34,197 nt of DNA from Methylococcales bacterium (GTDB lineage: Bacteria; Pseudomonadota; Gammaproteobacteria; Methylococcales; UBA1147). The DNA lies in NCBI GenBank assembly GCA_041748915.1, contig JBGTCG010000091.1, positions 1 through 34,197 on the forward strand, given 5' to 3'. This document shows positions 2,691-31,415 of the stretch, in pieces. The translations under genes and the position numbers were made by a program. Position 1 is the stretch's first letter. The number at the start of each line of letters is the position of its first letter. The notes beneath the pieces were generated by a model. That model saw only the letters and a program-made list of their open reading frames with translations. It did no database searches and was not told where the DNA came from.

Positions 2691-2917
2691 AATCAGAGCG
2701 AAAAAAGGATTAAAGGGATTCCCTGTTCATCCGGAAACACTCGTCCCTGTGAGGATTCCCTGGCCAAACCGGAAATCGATTTCCCGGTTCATTGCATTTT
2801 CAATAACGGACACCATTGAAAACGCCGGCTCGTCCTGAGCCGCGCTATCCGAAAGAACGTTAACTATAACACCACCCGGCAGAAAAGCCGACCACGCTTG
2901 CAGAAATCCACCGGAGT

Positions 2918-2996
2918 CGTTAGGGTAACGCTGAATAAATCCAGCCTGGATTTCTCAGCGGTCGGCAACCTTGCCAATCCGATTGGCAGGGTTGCC
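2918..2996 (-). repeat. copy A of a ~80-bp structured intergenic repeat family (reverse orientation relative to copies B and C)
   Basis: The reverse complement aligns about 70/79 with copy B (28247-28325). It contains the GGCAACC..GCC-AATCSGATT-GGC..GGTTGCC hairpin and the AAATCCAG-N-CTGGATTT hairpin. Confidence 0.8.
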
Positions 2997-3138
2997 TCAC
3001 AAAATCACACGCTTACAGCGTTCGATTTTGGCAGCGCATCCCTGCATGCGGGAAGTTCTGATTTAATCAGAACTTCCTTTGCGGCTGAGGGGAGCCAGGA
3101 CGGCAAAACGCGGATGGTCTTTGGAGACCCCACTCTGT

Positions 3139-4809
3139 TCAATTCAGCCGCGGAACCGAGTCCAGCAGTTTACGGGTATATTCGTGTTCCGGGGAATGCA
3201 GAACCCGGGCGGCTGGCCCCAGTTCGACGATTTTACCCTGATACATCACGGCCACCTCGTCCGCCATCTCCGCAACCACCGCGAGATTGTGACTGATAAA
3301 CAGATAGCTCAGGTTTTCTGTTTCCTGCAGGTTCTTGAGCAGTGCGATAATCTGCGCTTGAATCGAAACATCGAGCGAACTGGTGGGTTCGTCGCAAATG
3401 ATCAGTTTAGGCCGCACCGCGAGAGCCCTGGCGATGCAGATTCGCTGCCTCTGGCCACCGGAGAATTCATGCGGAAATCGATATCCGGCATCGGCCGGCA
3501 GCCCGACCTTGCCGAGTAGTTCCGTTACGCTGTTCCGGCGTTGTTTTTCGTTGACTTGCGGATGTAAGGCCAGGATCCCTTCGCCGATCACTTCACCGAC
3601 GGGCATTCGGGGATTCATTGACGAAAACGGGTCCTGAAATACCAGTTGCATTTCCACCCTCTTTTGCCTGAGCCGAACCGCCGGCAAATCGGCGAGATTT
3701 TCTCCCCTGAACCATACTTCCCCGCCGGTCGCGGGAACCAGACGCAAAATCGCCTTGCCGAGCGTTGTCTTGCCGCATCCGGACTCCCCGACCAGCGCCA
3801 GGGTGCGCCCGACCCCGAGTTGAAAACTTACTCCGTCCACCGCTCTGACATGGTCCGCCACCCGCTTGAATAAACCCGTTCGAACCGGGTAATAAACCTT
3901 GAAGTCTCTGACGTCGAGGAGATTGCCATCTTCAGCGGGACGTGATTCACGCACATGATCAATCGACGGCAGTGCGGCGAACAGCTTTTTGGTATAGGGA
4001 TGGCGCGCCCCGGAAAAAAATGCGTGTTGTGTGGACGATTCCAGAATGGCCCCATTCTGCATCACCGCAACCGTATCGGCCATTTCCCGGACCACCCCGA
4101 AATCGTGGGTGATCAGCCACAGCGACATACCCCGTTCAACCTGGATTTTTTTGAGTAATTTCAGGATCTGCGCTTGGATCGTCACGTCGAGCGCTGTGGT
4201 CGGCTCGTCCGCGATCAGCAAATCCGGTTTGTTGGCCAGCGCCATCGCAATGACCGCGCGCTGGCATTGGCCGCCCGACAATTGATGCGGATATTCACCA
4301 TACCGCCGCGCGCTCGCCGGAATTTCGACCTGATTCATGAGATCAATGACTTCGGCTTTCAGTTCGCTGCGGCTCAGTCTGGAACCGCCCGCAATCGCCT
4401 CCGCAATCTGGTCGCCGATTCTCATGACCGGATTCAGGGACGTCATCGGATCCTGAAAAACGATCCCGATCCTACGGCCCCGGACTTTTCGCATTTCCAG
4501 TTCGGGCAAGCGCAGCAAATCCTGGCGTCCGAGCACTACGCTGCCGGCTTCGATTCTTGCTCCCGGCGGCAGCAATCTCAGCACCGACAGGGCTGCGATC
4601 GATTTTCCCGAACCGGATTCTCCGATCAACGCAAAGGTTTCATTGGCGCGGATTTCAAAATGGATGCTATTGACCGCGGCCAGCGCGGCCGCACCGGAGC
4701 CGAAGCAAGTCTTTAACGCTCTGACCGCCAACACGACCCGTTCCGTCGGTTCGACCGGCCGATCCCGGGCGGCGTCACTATAGGGCAATGGGCGGCTTTG
4801 TTTGGGCAT
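3139..4809 (-). CDS. yejF: ABC transporter ATP-binding protein with two fused ATPase domains (YejF/DppDF-like; peptide/microcin C-type importer ATPase)
   Basis: Two complete Walker A (GESGSGKS, GESGCGKT), LSGGQ and Walker B/D-loop sets in one 556-aa polypeptide. It is the last gene of the minus-strand transporter operon. Confidence 0.88.
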   Translation of the reverse strand: MPKQSRPLPYSDAARDRPVEPTERVVLAVRALKTCFGSGAAALAAVNSIHFEIRANETFALIGESGSGKSIAALSVLRLLPPGARIEAGSVVLGRQDLLRLPELEMRKVRGRRIGIVFQDPMTSLNPVMRIGDQIAEAIAGGSRLSRSELKAEVIDLMNQVEIPASARRYGEYPHQLSGGQCQRAVIAMALANKPDLLIADEPTTALDVTIQAQILKLLKKIQVERGMSLWLITHDFGVVREMADTVAVMQNGAILESSTQHAFFSGARHPYTKKLFAALPSIDHVRESRPAEDGNLLDVRDFKVYYPVRTGLFKRVADHVRAVDGVSFQLGVGRTLALVGESGCGKTTLGKAILRLVPATGGEVWFRGENLADLPAVRLRQKRVEMQLVFQDPFSSMNPRMPVGEVIGEGILALHPQVNEKQRRNSVTELLGKVGLPADAGYRFPHEFSGGQRQRICIARALAVRPKLIICDEPTSSLDVSIQAQIIALLKNLQETENLSYLFISHNLAVVAEMADEVAVMYQGKIVELGPAARVLHSPEHEYTRKLLDSVPRLN

Positions 4810-21231: not shown

Positions 21232-21792
21232 TTAGGAATCCGTCTTTTTTACTGCTTGATCCGTCTTACCGGAAGGAATCTCCCCAATATCTTCGGGCCC
21301 GACGGGACCCGCGGTCGCGCCGCCGCTTATGCGACTTGCCTTCCAGATTCCAGGACACGCATTCACCGCATCTTTCCAGTTGCCTTTCGCTGAATTGGTC
21401 TCCGCTGAAAATGTCCCGAACAGTTCAGCCGCATCGTAGCCGGAATAGATCAGCATGGCTTTAATCCTGCCCGTGCTGTCAATCGTTCCGTCGACTTTAT
21501 ATTCAAATCCCGATTTATTCGTAATCTTACCGGTTATCTTGGAATTTTCAATCGTCACGGTTCCCAAACCTGTTTCGTGACCGCAAACCGGTTCATTGGT
21601 ACCATCTTCATTACCGGTTCGTCCGGTGACTTCCCATACTCCGTTGAACCGCTCGAGTTCTCCGGGCGCTACGGACTGGGCAATACCATCACCTTCGTGG
21701 CCACGGCCGGACAGCTCGGAACCGCTCGGATCGCATCCGGCGAGCAGCCAGGCAGAGGTCAACCCCATAACTAAAAACGTTCTTACGGTCAT
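21232..21792 (-). CDS. hypothetical lipoprotein
   Basis: Signal peptide plus lipobox MTVRTFLVMGLTSAWLLAGC. Mature protein is Gly/Thr-rich with two further Cys. The ORF track extends to 21840, but Met-17 gives a canonical signal. Confidence 0.6.
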   Translation of the reverse strand: MTVRTFLVMGLTSAWLLAGCDPSGSELSGRGHEGDGIAQSVAPGELERFNGVWEVTGRTGNEDGTNEPVCGHETGLGTVTIENSKITGKITNKSGFEYKVDGTIDSTGRIKAMLIYSGYDAAELFGTFSAETNSAKGNWKDAVNACPGIWKASRISGGATAGPVGPEDIGEIPSGKTDQAVKKTDS

Positions 21793-21871
21793 AGCCTTAT
21801 GATCTTTTGATAGGAGCGATCGACTCGATAACGGATGCAATAACGTATCACAGGTCGACTTCGCACTCCAC

Positions 21872-21944
21872 TCCTAAGAAGCGCTGAAATAAACCGGTCC
21901 TTGATTTCTCGGCGATCGGCAAACCCAAATGCGATTTTGGTTGC
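21872..21944 (-). repeat. copy D (degenerate) of the ~80-bp structured intergenic repeat family
   Basis: Reverse complement GTAAGGCAACC-AAAATCGCATTTGGG-TTTGCCGATCGCCGAGAAATCAAGG...TTTATTTCAGCGCTTCTTAGG aligns along its whole length with copy B. The central hairpin survives as CCAAA/TTTGG around the AATCGCAT loop. Confidence 0.6.
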
Positions 21945-22104
21945 CTTACAAAATCAATCGCGGAAAGCATGGATTTTAGCAGCGCACCCCTGCACTACGG
22001 AAAGATCTGCTCTATTAGAGTTTCGCTGGCCAATAATTGTGCTTCATGCTCCAGGATTGAATATTGAAGGCTTCCAGATCACTCTCGGCTGTCCCGCTGC
22101 CGTT

Positions 22105-23832
22105 CTATTTTTTAATCAGATAGTCATGGATGATCAATACGTCAAGACCGCTGGTGTAAAAAACGCTCAGGGCGTCCTCGATGGAATGAATGATCGGTTT
22201 GCCCATTACGTTAAAGCTGGTATTCAATAGAATTGGGATACCCGTTAAATCATAGAAAGCCCTGATTAAAGAATAAAATTTTTGATTATACTCGGGTTTG
22301 ACGGTTTGCAGACGTCCAGTCCCGTTCACATGCACCACCGCCGGGATTTTGCGCCTGACTCCCTCGCGGAACACGAGAGTTCGTTCCATGTACGGACTTT
22401 CCTGGTAATTTTCAAAATAATCCGGTCCGAACTCGTGCAAAATGGACGGCGCGAACGGGCGGAATTGTTCGCGAAACTTGACACGGGCATTAATTTTGTC
22501 CTTCATCGTCTCTGGTCGTGGATCGGCCAGAATCGATCGGTTCCCGAGCGATCTCGGGCCGAACTCAGCTTTCCCCTGCACCCATCCGATCAGCTTGCCT
22601 TCGCTGAGCATTTTTGCGGTTTCGATATGGATAGTACCCGGAAAGTGGAACACATCGGAGAGATTGGCAACCTTTAAAACCCGTTCCAATCGGCTTTCGG
22701 ATATTTCCGATCCAAGATAAGGACTAGCGGCCTGGTTATTGATTTTTTGTTGCGCATGATCGGCGTGAACGGCCAGGAATGCCGCGCCCAGCGCGGTTCC
22801 ATCGTCGGCCGGAGCCGAAGGTACAAACAGTTTCCTGAACGGGGTATTTCCCTCGATAAACCCCGCCGTCGAGGAATTCAACATGCACCCTCCGGCCATT
22901 GCGAGGTTATCCGATGAACAGATTCGATGAAAATTCCGGATAGCTTCGAGCAGGGTTTCGCTAAAAACCTGCTGCGCGGTAAAAGCCAGATCCGCGGATT
23001 GCAGACTGCCCGTAACCAACCGCTCTTGTAATCGCTTCAAAATTCGTTGATAGGCTTGGTTGGAACTGCCGCCTATCGTGGACTCACGAAACACGAAAAC
23101 CGATTTCAGCATTTCATAGGCACTCGGGTCCAACGAGCCGTAGGGCGCAAAACCCATCACTTTCCATTCTTCCCCTTTATCGGGATTGAAGCCGCACAAC
23201 CAGGTCATATCGGCATAAAAACGTCCGAGGCTCGCAAATCCTTTCTGTTCCTTAATGACCTTGATGGTCCCGTTTTTGTACTGGTAATAGGCGAATGAAC
23301 CGAAATCCCCGGCTCCGTCGACGATCATGCACGACGCTTCGTTAAACGGGCTGGAATAGCAAGCCAATGCGGCATGGCATAGATGATGGGGAAAATACCG
23401 GATGGAATAGCGACTGTCCGGGAAGGCCAATTTCATGGCATAAGTAAAACCTACTCCGAGCCTGTCATACATGGACGCCGCAAAAGCATTGATCATTTTC
23501 GTACGCAACGAATAAGGCGTATTGAACCTGACGTCGCGGCTCCTGGCTTTAAATATCGCCGTTGCCGAAGTTATTCCGAGCAGGCTGAGCAGCCGCGAGC
23601 AGCCGGCGGTGAATTTTCTCCAGTTGACCGCCACAACGAATTCGGCTCCGGGATCGCAGTGGCGTTTCAGCAACGACGTCAGGCGGTCATTGTCCGGTTC
23701 GCAATTTGGCGCGCGTTTATATTGCAGATATCGTTCGGTGGCCTCCGCAAACAGGATTTGCCCCTCCCGATCGATGATCGCAAGGGCCGGATCATGAGTC
23801 GATACGGAAAGACCGATGTAATATCGCTTCAT
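22105..23832 (-). CDS. carbamoyltransferase, NodU/CmcH/TobZ family
   Basis: N-terminal ASKHA-like start MKRYYIGLSVSTHDPALAIID. C-terminal carbamoyltransferase block VHVNGTGRLQTV...PILLNTSFNVMGKPIIHSIEDALSVFYTSGLDVLIIHDYLI. 575 aa, typical size. Confidence 0.85.
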   Translation of the reverse strand: MKRYYIGLSVSTHDPALAIIDREGQILFAEATERYLQYKRAPNCEPDNDRLTSLLKRHCDPGAEFVVAVNWRKFTAGCSRLLSLLGITSATAIFKARSRDVRFNTPYSLRTKMINAFAASMYDRLGVGFTYAMKLAFPDSRYSIRYFPHHLCHAALACYSSPFNEASCMIVDGAGDFGSFAYYQYKNGTIKVIKEQKGFASLGRFYADMTWLCGFNPDKGEEWKVMGFAPYGSLDPSAYEMLKSVFVFRESTIGGSSNQAYQRILKRLQERLVTGSLQSADLAFTAQQVFSETLLEAIRNFHRICSSDNLAMAGGCMLNSSTAGFIEGNTPFRKLFVPSAPADDGTALGAAFLAVHADHAQQKINNQAASPYLGSEISESRLERVLKVANLSDVFHFPGTIHIETAKMLSEGKLIGWVQGKAEFGPRSLGNRSILADPRPETMKDKINARVKFREQFRPFAPSILHEFGPDYFENYQESPYMERTLVFREGVRRKIPAVVHVNGTGRLQTVKPEYNQKFYSLIRAFYDLTGIPILLNTSFNVMGKPIIHSIEDALSVFYTSGLDVLIIHDYLIKK

Positions 23833-26695: not shown

Positions 26696-27552
26696 CACGG
26701 TCTCCTCAGCGATCGCTGCTTTCGGTAACAATGGTGTGACCTGAAAACCAGAATTCAATCAGATCACTTACGGCAATGTAGCATAAATATTCTAATCTCG
26801 TTACGCAATCAGCGTCTTTCCCCAAAATCCGCGATTAGATTTTGGAGAAGGTTGTCTATTGCCATTTTTGGACATTTTTTCAATATTGAATGAATTCCAG
26901 ATTACCCGCCGCGGGGGCGGTTGCGGTTGCGAAACTCTTCCCCCACGATCAAACCATTCTCCGCCGGGCAGGTTCAGCAAGCTCTGTAACTGTTTATCGG
27001 CCCGCAACAGCCGCAAGACCTCCAGCGAACGTCCACTGCCCGGCAGCGTCAACACCAACGATACCATTAGCCAACGGCTGGTAGCCCATCCGATTGGCGG
27101 GCCCGGGCGATTCCCGCTCGAAATGACTCGGCGCACCCATGGCGCGCAGGTCCTCACCGAACAATACCAGCCCAGCCTGCGCCGTCAACGTGTCTTGGGT
27201 TCCGTGTGATGATTCGATTCGCGCAAGAACGTTTTCCTTGACTTGGCAAATTAAACCCCAGTTAATAATTTACGGTAGTCGCAGCTATAATTACCAATCC
27301 CCGGCTGAAACAAATTCATGGATCGGCGGTCAGTTGTTCGGAAACGAACTAAAACGGTTCCGGCTCGGGACGAACCGGCATGCAATGAATGAGTGCAATT
27401 GAAAATGCAACGAACCCGAAAATCGCATTTTCCGGTTCCGCCAAGGACACATTCTTGGGGATTGGCTGCATGGCGACCGTCGAACGGCCGGAAAGGCCAA
27501 ATGTGAAAGCGTGATTGCGTAGTCATCGATCTGGCAACGTAAGCGATTTTGT

Positions 27553-28215
27553 TTGAGTGGAACTATGAGTTGTCTGAATGAATTTACTGCGCTGATATTC
27601 GATATGGACGGCGTCCTCTTTTTCTCCTCCGAGGCGCACGGCGAAGCTTACGACAGAACCTTCAAGGCCTATGGATACAATGGGCTACCGTATGCCGAGA
27701 TCGCCGGCGTACGAACCGATGATGCGTTCCGGCAGGTACTCTTGAACGAGGACGTGATCGAGTCGGACGCCCTGATTCAGGAACTCACGGTTACCAAACG
27801 CAGATGGGCGGGCTTGTTTCTGCGAGAATCGCCGCCGGTCGTGCCCAATTGCCGTTTTATCCTGGAGCAACTCGAAGAACGCTTTGTCTTGGGGCTCGCA
27901 AGCTCGGCCAGTAAGGCTACGGTTGATCTTTTTCTTGACGCGAGCGGAACCCGGAATCTTTTTCGATACGTGCTGAATGGCCAGGATGTCAAACATTCAA
28001 AACCGGCTCCCGAAATTTTTTTGACGGTGATGGAAAAACTGAATGTCGATCCGAAATCGGTGGCGATCGTCGAAGATTCGGTCGCCGGGGTTATCGCGGG
28101 CCAGAAATCCGGCGCGACCGTGATCGGCGTCAGGGGGACCGTCGAGGACGCGGTTCTTTTTGCGAACGGCGCAAAGTACGTCATCTCCGGAATCCGCGAT
28201 CTACTCGATCTGTGA
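27553..28215 (+). CDS. HAD-IA family hydrolase (beta-phosphoglucomutase/phosphatase-like)
   Basis: Motif I is FDMDGVL, motif II S/T, motif III K ... (HSKPAPEIF), motif IV (VEDSVAGVIAGQKSGA). Confidence 0.85.
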   Translation: MSGTMSCLNEFTALIFDMDGVLFFSSEAHGEAYDRTFKAYGYNGLPYAEIAGVRTDDAFRQVLLNEDVIESDALIQELTVTKRRWAGLFLRESPPVVPNCRFILEQLEERFVLGLASSASKATVDLFLDASGTRNLFRYVLNGQDVKHSKPAPEIFLTVMEKLNVDPKSVAIVEDSVAGVIAGQKSGATVIGVRGTVEDAVLFANGAKYVISGIRDLLDL

Positions 28216-28246
28216 TGCCGCTCAGGGCACCGGCCGCGATCCATTA

Positions 28247-28325
28247 GGCAACCCTGCCAATCGCATTGGCGGGGTTGCCGAGCGCTGAGAAATCCAGGAT
28301 GGATTTGTTCAGCGTTTCCTTGGCG
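28247..28325 (+). repeat. copy B of the ~80-bp structured intergenic repeat family (reference copy)
   Basis: GGCAACCCTGCC-AATCGCATT-GGCGGGGTTGCC hairpin, then GAGCGCTGAGAAATCCAGG-A-TGGATTT hairpin, then GTTCAGCGTTTCCTTGGCG. It lies between convergent genes, 32 bp after the HAD stop. Confidence 0.8.
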
Positions 28326-28354: not shown

Positions 28355-29011
28355 TCAACCAGGCCGCTGGGTACCGGTCCGCTCGGGAGCCTTGTGGTCT
28401 GAGATATAGTTCGCGATGCCCTCAGCGAGGTCGTAACTGAATTGATTCAAGCAATCGTTGATGCCCGACACCCTGTCGGTATAGCTGAGTCCCGAAATCC
28501 GGGTTTCGATTCTTGATCGAAAGCTCCGGCTCGACGCAGCGGATTTGACGTCCCGAATGGACCAATCGGCCCATAGAATGGCGCTCCGATCCTGGACGTC
28601 GAGCCGCTGGATCGAAATTTTGATCTGGTAGCGCACGCCCTCGGTATTTTTCCAGGGATACGATACCGTGTCATGACCTTCAAACAGCCGCGACAAATTT
28701 TCCTGCACCACCCGCACGAGATCGTGTTTTAACGGGCCGGCCCATTGATGCAAATCATTGATGCGGATTTTGTTGCGCCCAACCCTCGTAACCACCTGGG
28801 GACGGTCCAGATATTTAGGGATCGACACGGGTCCCACTCCGATTACGCCGGTATTTTCGGGTAAACGGATCGAGGCGGATGGGTTTGCATCGGGATTCAA
28901 GATATAAAACGTGGTCCGGACGGTAGTGCCGAGACATCCGGCCATCAGAAATGGCATCAATATCCATTGCAAATGGGTTCGAAAGCGCAGCGGTAAATAA
29001 GGGCACGGCAT
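28355..29011 (-). CDS. PqiC/YmbA-like ABC-transport auxiliary lipoprotein (DUF330-type)
   Basis: Signal plus lipobox MPCPYLPLRFRTHLQWILMPFLMAGC, then a YxL..P motif region (TFYILNPD) and the LHQWAGPL block typical of PqiC. The ORF track extends to 29263 but that would place ~84 aa before the signal peptide. No pqiA/pqiB is adjacent. Confidence 0.65.
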   Translation of the reverse strand: MPCPYLPLRFRTHLQWILMPFLMAGCLGTTVRTTFYILNPDANPSASIRLPENTGVIGVGPVSIPKYLDRPQVVTRVGRNKIRINDLHQWAGPLKHDLVRVVQENLSRLFEGHDTVSYPWKNTEGVRYQIKISIQRLDVQDRSAILWADWSIRDVKSAASSRSFRSRIETRISGLSYTDRVSGINDCLNQFSYDLAEGIANYISDHKAPERTGTQRPG

Positions 29012-29516
29012 TGGTCTGGTCTTTAATAATTGTTCGAGGAATGGAACGGATTGCAAGGTTTGTGGGAACCGAACCGGTAATTTTCCCGGGTATGACGCGG
29101 ACTGAACGGCGGGGTGGAAGTTTACCCTTCGGTCGCCGCGACAGGCCGTGATCCTCCGAGTCCGTGAAGGCAATTCCCATTCGACTTCCGCAATCGCCCG
29201 CGTAAATATCCCGTTGTGATTTTCTTCGAACAACGGCCAGTGTACTTTCGCGTTTTGGTCCACGGCTCCCGATCGAAGTCCACGTGTCGCGGTTCGATTC
29301 GCGAATCTTTCATGAACGTTGATCGATCCGGACTTTTATGAAGATGAATCGGCACAGTCTGGCGTGCAATAATACCTGCCCGCACCGGGCAATGATAGGG
29401 TTCCTTATCGCATTTCAACCCGGCCATGGGGTTGATCTATTTTCTTCTGTTGAACCCAGGCCAGGAACGACGGACGTTAAACAATCGATCGCAACGGCTC
29501 GCGTGGAGTGAACGTT

Positions 29517-30144: not shown

Positions 30145-30531
30145 TTATTGCCTTTTGAACCGATGAATCAGCCGGCGTTGCTTTTTGTTCGGACGCGTTT
30201 CCGGCTGATTCGAGAATTCCTCTCCGGCTTTTCGCTGCTCAATCAGAGCCTGGCGTCGTGCATGGCTTTCAGGCGATTCCTCATACAACAAGCCGGCTTC
30301 GCTGGCCGGTTTGCGTTGTTGCGACAAGCCCGTGACGGTCAGCTCCCACCGGTACGGGCCTTTCGTAACGGAAACACAATTACCGATTTTGACGTCCTTT
30401 CCGGGTTTGCTTCGCTGGCCGTTCAAATGCACTTTTCCGCCGGAGATCGCTTCAGTCGCGAGCTTCCGGGTTTTAAAAAATCGCGCGGCCCAAAGCCATT
30501 TATCGAGTCTTTGGCTGCTCGAAGCTTCCAT
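30145..30531 (-). CDS. hslR: heat shock protein 15 (ribosome-associated S4-domain protein HslR)
   Basis: N-terminal RLDKWLWAARFFKTRKLATEAISGGKVHLNGQR matches the Hsp15 S4 domain. Basic C-terminal tail. Confidence 0.86.
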   Translation of the reverse strand: MEASSSQRLDKWLWAARFFKTRKLATEAISGGKVHLNGQRSKPGKDVKIGNCVSVTKGPYRWELTVTGLSQQRKPASEAGLLYEESPESHARRQALIEQRKAGEEFSNQPETRPNKKQRRLIHRFKRQ

Positions 30532-30690
30532 AAATGTTTTTTAAAAAGGAGTTCAATGTCGAATTCTGACCCGATTGCCGGACAATCGTATTATGATCCG
30601 TCACCTTTAGGGAAGATTTGTTAAATCACGGTTTCCCGCAGCGAACGGATTCGCCGTCAAAATCTACGCTTTCAGCATTTGATTTTATAA

Positions 30691-30774
30691 GGCAACGCCG
30701 AATCGCATTAGGGTGGCCTGCCGCTGAGAAATACGCGATGCATTTATTCAGTGTTTCCTTGGCGCGCGGCCAAC
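30691..30774 (+). repeat. copy C of the ~80-bp structured intergenic repeat family
   Basis: GGCAACGCCG-AATCGCATT-AGGGTGGCCTGCC, then GCTGAGAAATACGCGATGCATTT (second hairpin with compensatory ACG/TGC versus CCAG/CTGG), then ATTCAGTGTTTCCTTGGCG. Lies in the divergent hslR/rraA intergenic region. Confidence 0.75.
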
Positions 30775-30929: not shown

Positions 30930-31415
30930 ATGAGTTTTAAAACCGCCGATTTATGTGATGCCTATGCGGGGAAGACGCAGGTCCAGATCGCCGAGCCGAT
31001 TTTTCAGATCTATGGCGGAAACCCCGCGTTTTACGGGCAGATCACTACGCTCAAGGTATTCGAGGATAACACTATGGTCAAAACCGTCCTCGAAACCCGC
31101 GTCCAAAACCGTGTCCTGGTGATCGATGGCGGCGGCTCGCATCGTTGCGCCCTGTTCGGCGATAACCTCGCAAGGCTCGCGGTCGACAACGGATGGAACG
31201 GAGTGGTGGTTTATGGTTGTATCCGGGACTCCGCCGATATCAACGAAATGCCGATCGGCATCCGCGCCTTGCATACCCATCCGTTGAAAAGCCGGAAACG
31301 CGGAATCGGAGAACAGGATATCCTGGTGACTTTCGCGGGCGTCAATTTCAAGACCGATCATTCTATTTATGTCGATCAGGATGGAATCATTGTCGCGGCG
31401 GAACCCTTGACCTGA
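30930..31415 (+). CDS. rraA: RraA family protein (regulator of RNase E activity A / MenG-like)
   Basis: 161 aa; DLCDAY, VLVIDGGGS, and the GDNLA...NGW.G.V..G..RD block are characteristic of RraA. Confidence 0.85.
   Translation: MSFKTADLCDAYAGKTQVQIAEPIFQIYGGNPAFYGQITTLKVFEDNTMVKTVLETRVQNRVLVIDGGGSHRCALFGDNLARLAVDNGWNGVVVYGCIRDSADINEMPIGIRALHTHPLKSRKRGIGEQDILVTFAGVNFKTDHSIYVDQDGIIVAAEPLT

Follow-up and report, generated by a model that had tools for sequence, protein, structure and literature searches.

Extent and placement of the repeat in the window

The window, which is the whole stretch of 34,197 nt analysed here and a complete NCBI MAG contig, carries a palindromic repeat at several places between genes, and the locus raises the question of what kind of element this repeat is and why its hairpins keep their pairing while their sequences change. 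In the initial annotation it was described as a unit of about 80 bp with two hairpins. A pattern derived from the core of the repeat gave exactly four sites in the window at up to three mismatches, against 0.03 by chance, and an nhmmer profile search of the window recovered four copies (A, B, C, and D) and no others. Both searches matched exactly the four places annotated before. The ORF listing and Pfam placed all four copies in intergenic DNA, as had been claimed, and the Pfam assignments of the window gene products (ABC ATPase, redoxin, carbamoyltransferase, HAD, ABC_trans_aux, S4/Hsp15, and RraA) agreed with the gene names given earlier. The near-identity of copies A and B was also reproduced by a repeat finder (88% across 81 nt). 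What did not stand was the delimitation of the unit. When the copies were aligned with their flanks, A, C, and D were found to have about 75 nt more in common upstream, and therefore the two-hairpin unit was only the 3′ half (H4, H5, and the terminal repeat) of a larger element, which measured 148-154 nt in these three copies and contained five hairpins (H1-H5). The "tail" of the earlier unit, (G/A)TTCAGCGTTTCCTTGGCG, was a conserved feature made up of two things, the 3′ terminal inverted repeat and the flanking target-site repeat.

Copy A (2924-3077, minus strand; 154 nt) was full length with H1-H5 all intact and matched the profile over model positions 1-151 (nhmmer E = 1e-33). Its ends read 5′ GGAAGTTCTGA... 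and 3′ ...TTCAGCGTTACC, its flanks were CAAA (3078-3081) and CTAA (2920-2923), and its neighbours were a yejF-like ABC ATPase gene (3139-4809, minus) and a redoxin gene (2193-2690, minus). Copy C (30611-30758, plus strand; 148 nt; model positions 3-152, E = 1e-28) was full length and partly degenerate, was flanked by TTAG (30607-30610) and TTGG (30759-30762), and occupied the divergent spacer between hslR (30145-30531, minus) and rraA (30930-31415, plus). Copy D (21878-22026, minus strand; 149 nt; model positions 8-151, E = 3e-27) was full length but degenerate, with an eroded 5′ terminal repeat and TTAG on the 3′ side only, and was located between a carbamoyltransferase gene (22105-23832, minus) and an ORF of 202 aa (21232-21840, minus). 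The flagged copy, B (about 28246-28319, plus strand), was only about 75 nt long because it is truncated at the 5′ side; it matched model positions 80-152 only (E = 3e-12) and consisted of H4 (28247-28279), H5 (28283-28314), and the 3′ terminal repeat extending to 28319, followed by TTGG (28320-28323). It began about 30 nt past the stop codon of a HAD hydrolase gene (27553-28215, plus), which converges with the gene of an ABC_trans_aux lipoprotein (28355-29263, minus). The profile matches themselves ran over 2925-3077 (A), 28244-28319 (B), 30612-30758 (C), and 21878-22019 (D). Over the full length, the window copies were 61-66% identical to one another. These results indicated that the four window copies are old intergenic insertions in a Methylococcales-like genome. 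Copy A is structurally intact and B lacks the 5′ half, while decay is under way in C and D; the flanks of all four were consistent with old insertions.

A family of related elements in metagenomes

A metagenome scan with the pattern CGCYGAGAAATN10TTTNTTCAG returned 110 stretches, about two thirds of which were clear relatives, and the profile, applied to the recovered stretches, gave 114 matches distributed over 84 loci, with 51 matches close to full length. About 100 related copies came from at least 15 independent metagenome assemblies (Ga0255338, LNAP01, WOYI01 from a crude-oil site, Ga0080064, and Ga0209851 among them) and from another Gammaproteobacteria MAG, with different flanks each time. 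It was observed that the length had a sharp mode at 152 bp, as determined on 42 distinct end-to-end copies. The dominant form reads GGAAACGCTGAAGTATTCAGCGTTTCC-C-GCAGCGCAGGGATGCGCTGC-CAAAATCAGTGGCTGTAAGCCACTGATTTTG-TGA-GCCATCGGAAAACCACGCTTTTCCGATGGC-GGG-CGCTGAGAAATCCAGGATGGATTTATTCAGCG-CTTCC and forms the five hairpins H1-H5. The window subfamily was 63-71% identical to the family consensus, copy A reaching 71%; at the same position as in the main family it has a differing H4 (GGCAACCCTGCC...GGCAGGGTTGCC), and many of its substitutions in H1 and H3 were paired. Variants of other lengths were an 83-bp form without H3 and H4 and forms of 165-206 bp with a REP-like insert, GTGGGAGCCCGGC...GCCGGGCGATC. 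The family element is small, multicopy, and non-coding; the copies differ by indels that would disrupt every possible reading frame.

These data bear on the plainest explanation, that the repeat arose by local duplication or as chance palindromes with no mobility at all. Such an origin would suit four copies in 34 kb and the close likeness of A and B, but it does not suit a family that recurs in differing flanks across independent assemblies and has defined ends with target duplications, and we regard it as having next to no probability.

Species-representative genomes were scanned with a pattern requiring GCC before CGCYGAG, which fits the window subfamily and excludes the main family (GGC GGG CGCTGAG); apart from two chance matches in coding sequence, the yield was two half copies, both from one Gammaproteobacteria MAG. 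In this uncultured MAG, MFD05684.bin.1.156, only 3′-half copies were seen (locus L001 2620-2685; locus L003 3842-3911 and 4566-4605), which covered model positions of about 83-152 and resembled copy B in extent. Such halves may arise by repeated truncation, or they may move as units of their own.

The window as a whole had no Rfam match at the gathering score, and copy A gave only chance hairpin matches at E <= 10. A blastn search of a plasmid collection with a window copy and the family consensus found no match, and a pattern scan of viral contigs and phages found chance matches only. Searches of the literature by sequence strings and by topic revealed no prior description, ISfinder and dedicated MITE catalogues lying outside this comparison. 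The element thus appears to be uncatalogued, and the earlier suggestion that it may be undescribed is consistent with these searches.

Terminal inverted repeats and target-site duplications

The 42 end-to-end copies had 12-nt terminal inverted repeats, GGAAACGCTGAA...TTCAGCGCTTCC, the 3′ repeat reading TTCAGCG(C/T)TTCC. The 4 bp adjoining the element were identical on both sides in 20 of the 42 copies and differed by one base in 11. When the pairing of the flanks was permuted 10,000 times, perfect matches averaged 3.3 and never exceeded 11. Among the 20 perfect pairs, 17 were non-palindromic direct repeats (CTAA, TTAG, ATAA, ATAG, ATGG, CAAG, and others), and the flanks were mutually reverse-complementary in only four copies, three of them palindromic. 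Since the repeats are mostly direct and non-palindromic, they are not a prolongation of the inverted repeat but duplications of the target site. The commonest were CTAA, TTAG, and CTAG, which conform to YTAR. In the window, the flanks of copies A and C had one mismatch each, and D had no recognisable repeat; because their own flanking repeats are imperfect, the four window copies are called MITEs on the basis of family homology.

Relationship to the IS5 family

A 4-bp target duplication of YTAR type is a signature of the IS5 group. A tblastn search with E. coli InsH gave a single match, an IS5-like N-terminal remnant in locus L044, located 1.3 kb from a family copy. Three IS5-family remnants had left ends that read ATAA then AGAAGCGCTGATTTATCCC (L044), CTAG then GGACACGCTGATTTATTCG (L122), and TTAG then GGAAACACTGATTTATTCC (L124), the last two being loci of database relatives of the L044 remnant. 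The 5′ ends of the MITE, e.g., TTAA then GGAAGCGCTGATTTATTCAG, were nearly identical to these left ends; of the 19 positions compared with the left inverted repeat of the remnants, about 15-18 agreed. About 80 nt downstream of each remnant left end, an InsH-like N-terminus is encoded. The remnant protein was 47% identical to residues 5-60 of E. coli InsH1 (E = 4e-18) and matched the NCBIfam model transpos_IS5_4 (7.7e-6), and its database relatives were short proteins annotated as IS5 family or PF05598. The ends of the MITE also start GGAA...GAA, and the window 3′ end in reverse, GGAAACGCTGAACAAATCC, was identical to the inverted repeat of E. coli IS5A, GGAAGGTGCGAACAAGTCC, at 13 of 19 positions. 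The single copy of E. coli IS5A that was inspected had no matching target duplication; the duplication seen at the MITE follows the behaviour established for IS5.

Together with the target duplications, these end matches suggest that the repeat is a MITE for which an IS5-family transposase acts in trans, a reading to which we assign a probability of about 85%, and they bear out the MITE-like character that had been offered before as one of several options. According to this model, the element, about 150 bp long and non-coding, would carry only the ends recognised by an InsH-like DDE transposase of the IS5 family. The transposase, made elsewhere, would use the 12-nt terminal inverted repeats as its cutting sites, and the element would insert at 4-bp YTAR-like targets, which would be duplicated in the process. 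The MITE differs from IS5 in having no transposase gene and only 150 bp, and its interior of five hairpins is not that of a simple IS deletion derivative.

In about 790 kb of DNA from the loci analysed, there was no intact IS5-family partner with matching ends, and only N-terminal remnants were present. In none of the loci did a pair of inverted ends spaced 0.4-4 kb from each other bracket a transposase gene, and the 34-kb window contained no transposase gene. The database relatives of the IS5-like fragment were all short (52-93 aa; L124-L126 and L122-L123), so that the lineage was met as remnants only; one set was interrupted by an IS21-family insertion, and another was a relic between glycosyltransferase genes.

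Patchy distribution in related genomes

The window RraA was closest to that of MAGs labelled "Methylococcales bacterium" (87-89%) and about 70% identical to that of Methylobacter. Three related loci shared the gene order DsrC-hslR-rraA-cobalamin adenosyltransferase, with RraA 87-88% identical, and their hslR-rraA spacer measured 172-180 nt without the element, compared with 398 nt in the window, where copy C resides. A fourth syntenic locus, L119, had a differing hslR-rraA spacer of 359 nt, also without the element. No element copy was detected in the 46 kb of the four syntenic loci combined.

A second comparison was provided by a copy in the spacer that separates fadH from a DUF2944 gene; this copy was common to the near-identical strains of loci L044 (5840-5991), L099, and L127 (5107-5216). 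In two relatives with FadH 82-83% identical, the fadH-DUF2944 spacer was 42 nt long and without the element, and the 44 kb of these two relatives held no element copy. The relatives were 82-88% identical at the protein level and too diverged in intergenic DNA for a base-precise alignment of an empty site. The closest strain, that of L127 (98% FadH), carried the same insertion less 40 nt. In this copy, an internal deletion of 40 nt extended from the 3′ arm of H4 to H5, and the loop of H1 was inverted from GAAGTATTC to GAATACTTC. These changes are direct evidence of palindrome-associated mutation in elements of the family.

Folding and covariation of the hairpins

In the element, H1 and H5 each arise where a terminal repeat pairs locally with its own inverted copy in the interior, and H2-H4 are internal palindromes, of which H4 is replaced by a differing hairpin in the window subfamily. 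Folded as RNA, copy A formed five consecutive hairpins at -82.2 kcal/mol (z = -6.9), and copy B also folded better than shuffled sequence (z = -5.8), whereas copies C (z = -1.3) and D (z = -0.1) did not.

For covariation, the five-hairpin structure was imposed on 33 full-length copies and scored, with 500 shuffles and with slid partners as controls. Standard pairs made up 95% of the cells, compared with 90.3% in the shuffles and 36-43% with slid partners. There were 21 pairs that had changed on both sides, a number reached by none of the 500 shuffles (9.3 ± 2.1) nor by the slid partners (7-13), and the covariation score was 0.171, against 0.087 in the shuffles and not above 0.052 with slid partners. 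The signal was located in H1-H4; H5 hardly varied, in part because it had been fixed by the search pattern. These results showed that pairing is kept through compensatory change, as claimed for the window, and the evidence across the family was far stronger than that from the four window copies alone. Within H1, covariation took the forms GGAACCGC/GCGGTTCC, GCAAACGC/GCGTTTGC, and GGACACGC/GCGTGTCC, and occurred even in copies whose own 3′ terminal repeat did not follow, which argues for a constraint or a mutational process local to each hairpin.

The excess of compensatory changes, together with the retention of all five hairpins in copy A despite its divergence from the consensus, is the main argument for a different explanation, in which the repeat would be a structured RNA family, that is, sRNA genes or 3′-UTR/terminator modules under selection on the RNA fold, with mobility incidental or absent. 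The placement of the window copies points in the same direction, three of the four lying 3′ of a gene in sense orientation, as the initial annotation noted. This pattern did not extend to the family. Among 27 copies with evaluable context, as judged from a rough GC3-based gene call that put one further copy inside an ORF, 10 were between convergent genes, 5 in tandem and co-oriented, 7 in tandem and anti-oriented, and 5 between divergent genes, so that there was no orientation bias relative to genes. Likewise, G·T mispairs at 20 pairs were not in clear excess over A·C mispairs at 14, and similar numbers of this kind reveal no strand-specific signal. These two results give no support to selection at the RNA level. 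H3 also seemed to favour the RNA explanation, because its A-tract, GC stem, and T-tract weakly match a bidirectional terminator; in one subfamily, however, AAAATC/GATTTT had become AAGATC/GATCTT, which keeps the pairing and loses the U-tract. The genomic positions were not conserved in relatives, two window copies folded no better than their shuffles, the Rfam comparison offered nothing above chance hairpins, and the target duplications and IS5-type ends would call for a transposon explanation in any case. An sRNA or RNA-motif identity of the repeat is accordingly improbable, and we retain the MITE reading.

Several more specific candidates were set aside. A CsrB/Rsm-like sponge RNA, suggested by GGA in some loops, conflicted with the lack of an Rfam match, the non-conservation of GGA in the loops across copies, and the target duplications. 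For a sigma-54 promoter and for an integron attC site, neither the spacing nor the core motifs fitted on reading of the sequence. Intrinsic terminators were matched weakly by H3 alone, with the GATCTT subfamily as the exception described above.

With the repeat taken as a MITE, its five-hairpin body is not accounted for by the transposition mechanism alone, since internal hairpins are not known to be a requirement of IS5-type DDE transposition. Loop inversions were observed in the copies of L127 and L076, and a symmetric shortening of the H4 arms was observed in copy D. Events of this type are what template switching within palindromes gives rise to, and covariation by itself is therefore no proof of selection. 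The earlier statement that the pattern points to selection on structure was right as to the covariation and remains plausible, but it is not proven, given that hairpin-templated mutation yields the same pattern. The hairpins might also have an effect on the host, for example by stabilising or terminating transcript 3′ ends.

Comparison with known repeats and other mobile elements

Small, non-coding, multicopy, intergenic elements with terminal inverted repeats are also known as Correia elements in Neisseria and as ERIC/IRU in enterobacteria (about 100-160 bp), which, like the present family, often lie inside transcription units and serve as landing sites for other insertion sequences. Their sequences are unrelated to that of the MITE. 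Correia and ERIC/IRU elements fold as a single long hairpin via their terminal repeats, and Correia elements duplicate TA, whereas the MITE folds locally into five hairpins and duplicates 4 bp of YTAR type.

The short, perfect, GC-rich, covarying intergenic palindromes of the MITE body, which follow one another as in BIMEs and REPINs, recall REP sequences and lead to a further explanation, namely that palindromic units were spread by a REP-associated tyrosine transposase (RAYT) and not by a DDE transposase. One copy directly adjoins a RAYT gene (L006 1644-2168, plus; NCBIfam REP_Tyr_transpos, 3e-50), but this RAYT is flanked by its own, differing REPs of GTAGGGTGGGCA type and not by the MITE, and the adjacency looks incidental. 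The REP-like inserts mentioned above also seem to point this way. These REPs of GTGGGAGC type are separate sequences inserted into some copies and lie outside the element proper. The MITE itself has no GTAG head, the window encodes no RAYT, and the ends match IS5-family inverted repeats. Moreover, REP/REPIN spread is not described as yielding a fixed unit with 4-bp target duplications, such as the 152-bp unit found here. A REP-like identity, which had been among the initial suggestions, is thus very unlikely, and the IS5-family MITE remains the preferred reading. The 165-206 bp variants (L026, L036, L038, L050, L096, L109, L111, and others) contained, besides the REP-like palindrome, a GCGCAGC(A/G)AAGCTGCGC hairpin, both inserts being located in the H3-H4 region or replacing it; these variants are mosaics of two kinds of repeats.

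REP elements are targeted by IS110-family insertion sequences, and the MITE shares this property. An IS110-family IS (Pfam DEDD_Tnp_IS110 and Transposase_20) was inserted at CG|CTGAA in the terminal repeat of the MITE in L008 (about 85-1089, minus), L051, L052, and L070; of the four junctions, three were on the H1 side and one was on the H5 side. The recurrence of CG|CTGAA junctions indicated that the MITE is a specific landing site for an IS110-family element. A broader proposal, which we consider possible but doubtful, is that the five hairpins are kept by selection, either for propagation through single-stranded DNA or cruciforms or for an orientation-independent role useful to the host, for example in terminating transcription from both sides or insulating neighbouring genes. 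Exchange of hairpin modules (H4) would then have allowed the family to persist and diversify in distant uncultured Gammaproteobacteria, methanotrophs among them, and the family would double as a dedicated landing pad for the IS110 family at CG|CTGAA.

For annotation, the present assignment accounts for a repeat that recurs between genes in uncultured gammaproteobacterial genomes, Methylococcales-like ones included, and avoids its misreading as an sRNA or a regulatory motif. An IS5-family MITE with a chain of covarying hairpins could help to separate structural selection from palindrome-templated mutation, and the IS110-family insertions add a layer of mobile elements within mobile elements. 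The current understanding of MITEs is unchanged by this ordinary kind of element, which is mildly unusual only in that its five-hairpin body is maintained and that IS110-family elements use it as a target.

The window also contained another repeat, about 90 nt long and unrelated to the MITE, at 2745-2835 (minus) and 27345-27440 (plus), the two copies being about 75% identical. Its 28-nt core, ATTGAAAATGCAAyGAACCnGrAAATCG, had exactly two pattern matches with 0 expected, and is preceded by a hairpin, CGGCTCrGGACGArCCG, and followed by a palindrome, CCGGAAATCGATTTCCGG. Both copies lie upstream of, and are co-oriented with, a gene, one with that of the redoxin and the other with that of the HAD hydrolase, and they could represent regulatory DNA common to the two genes or a further small mobile element.
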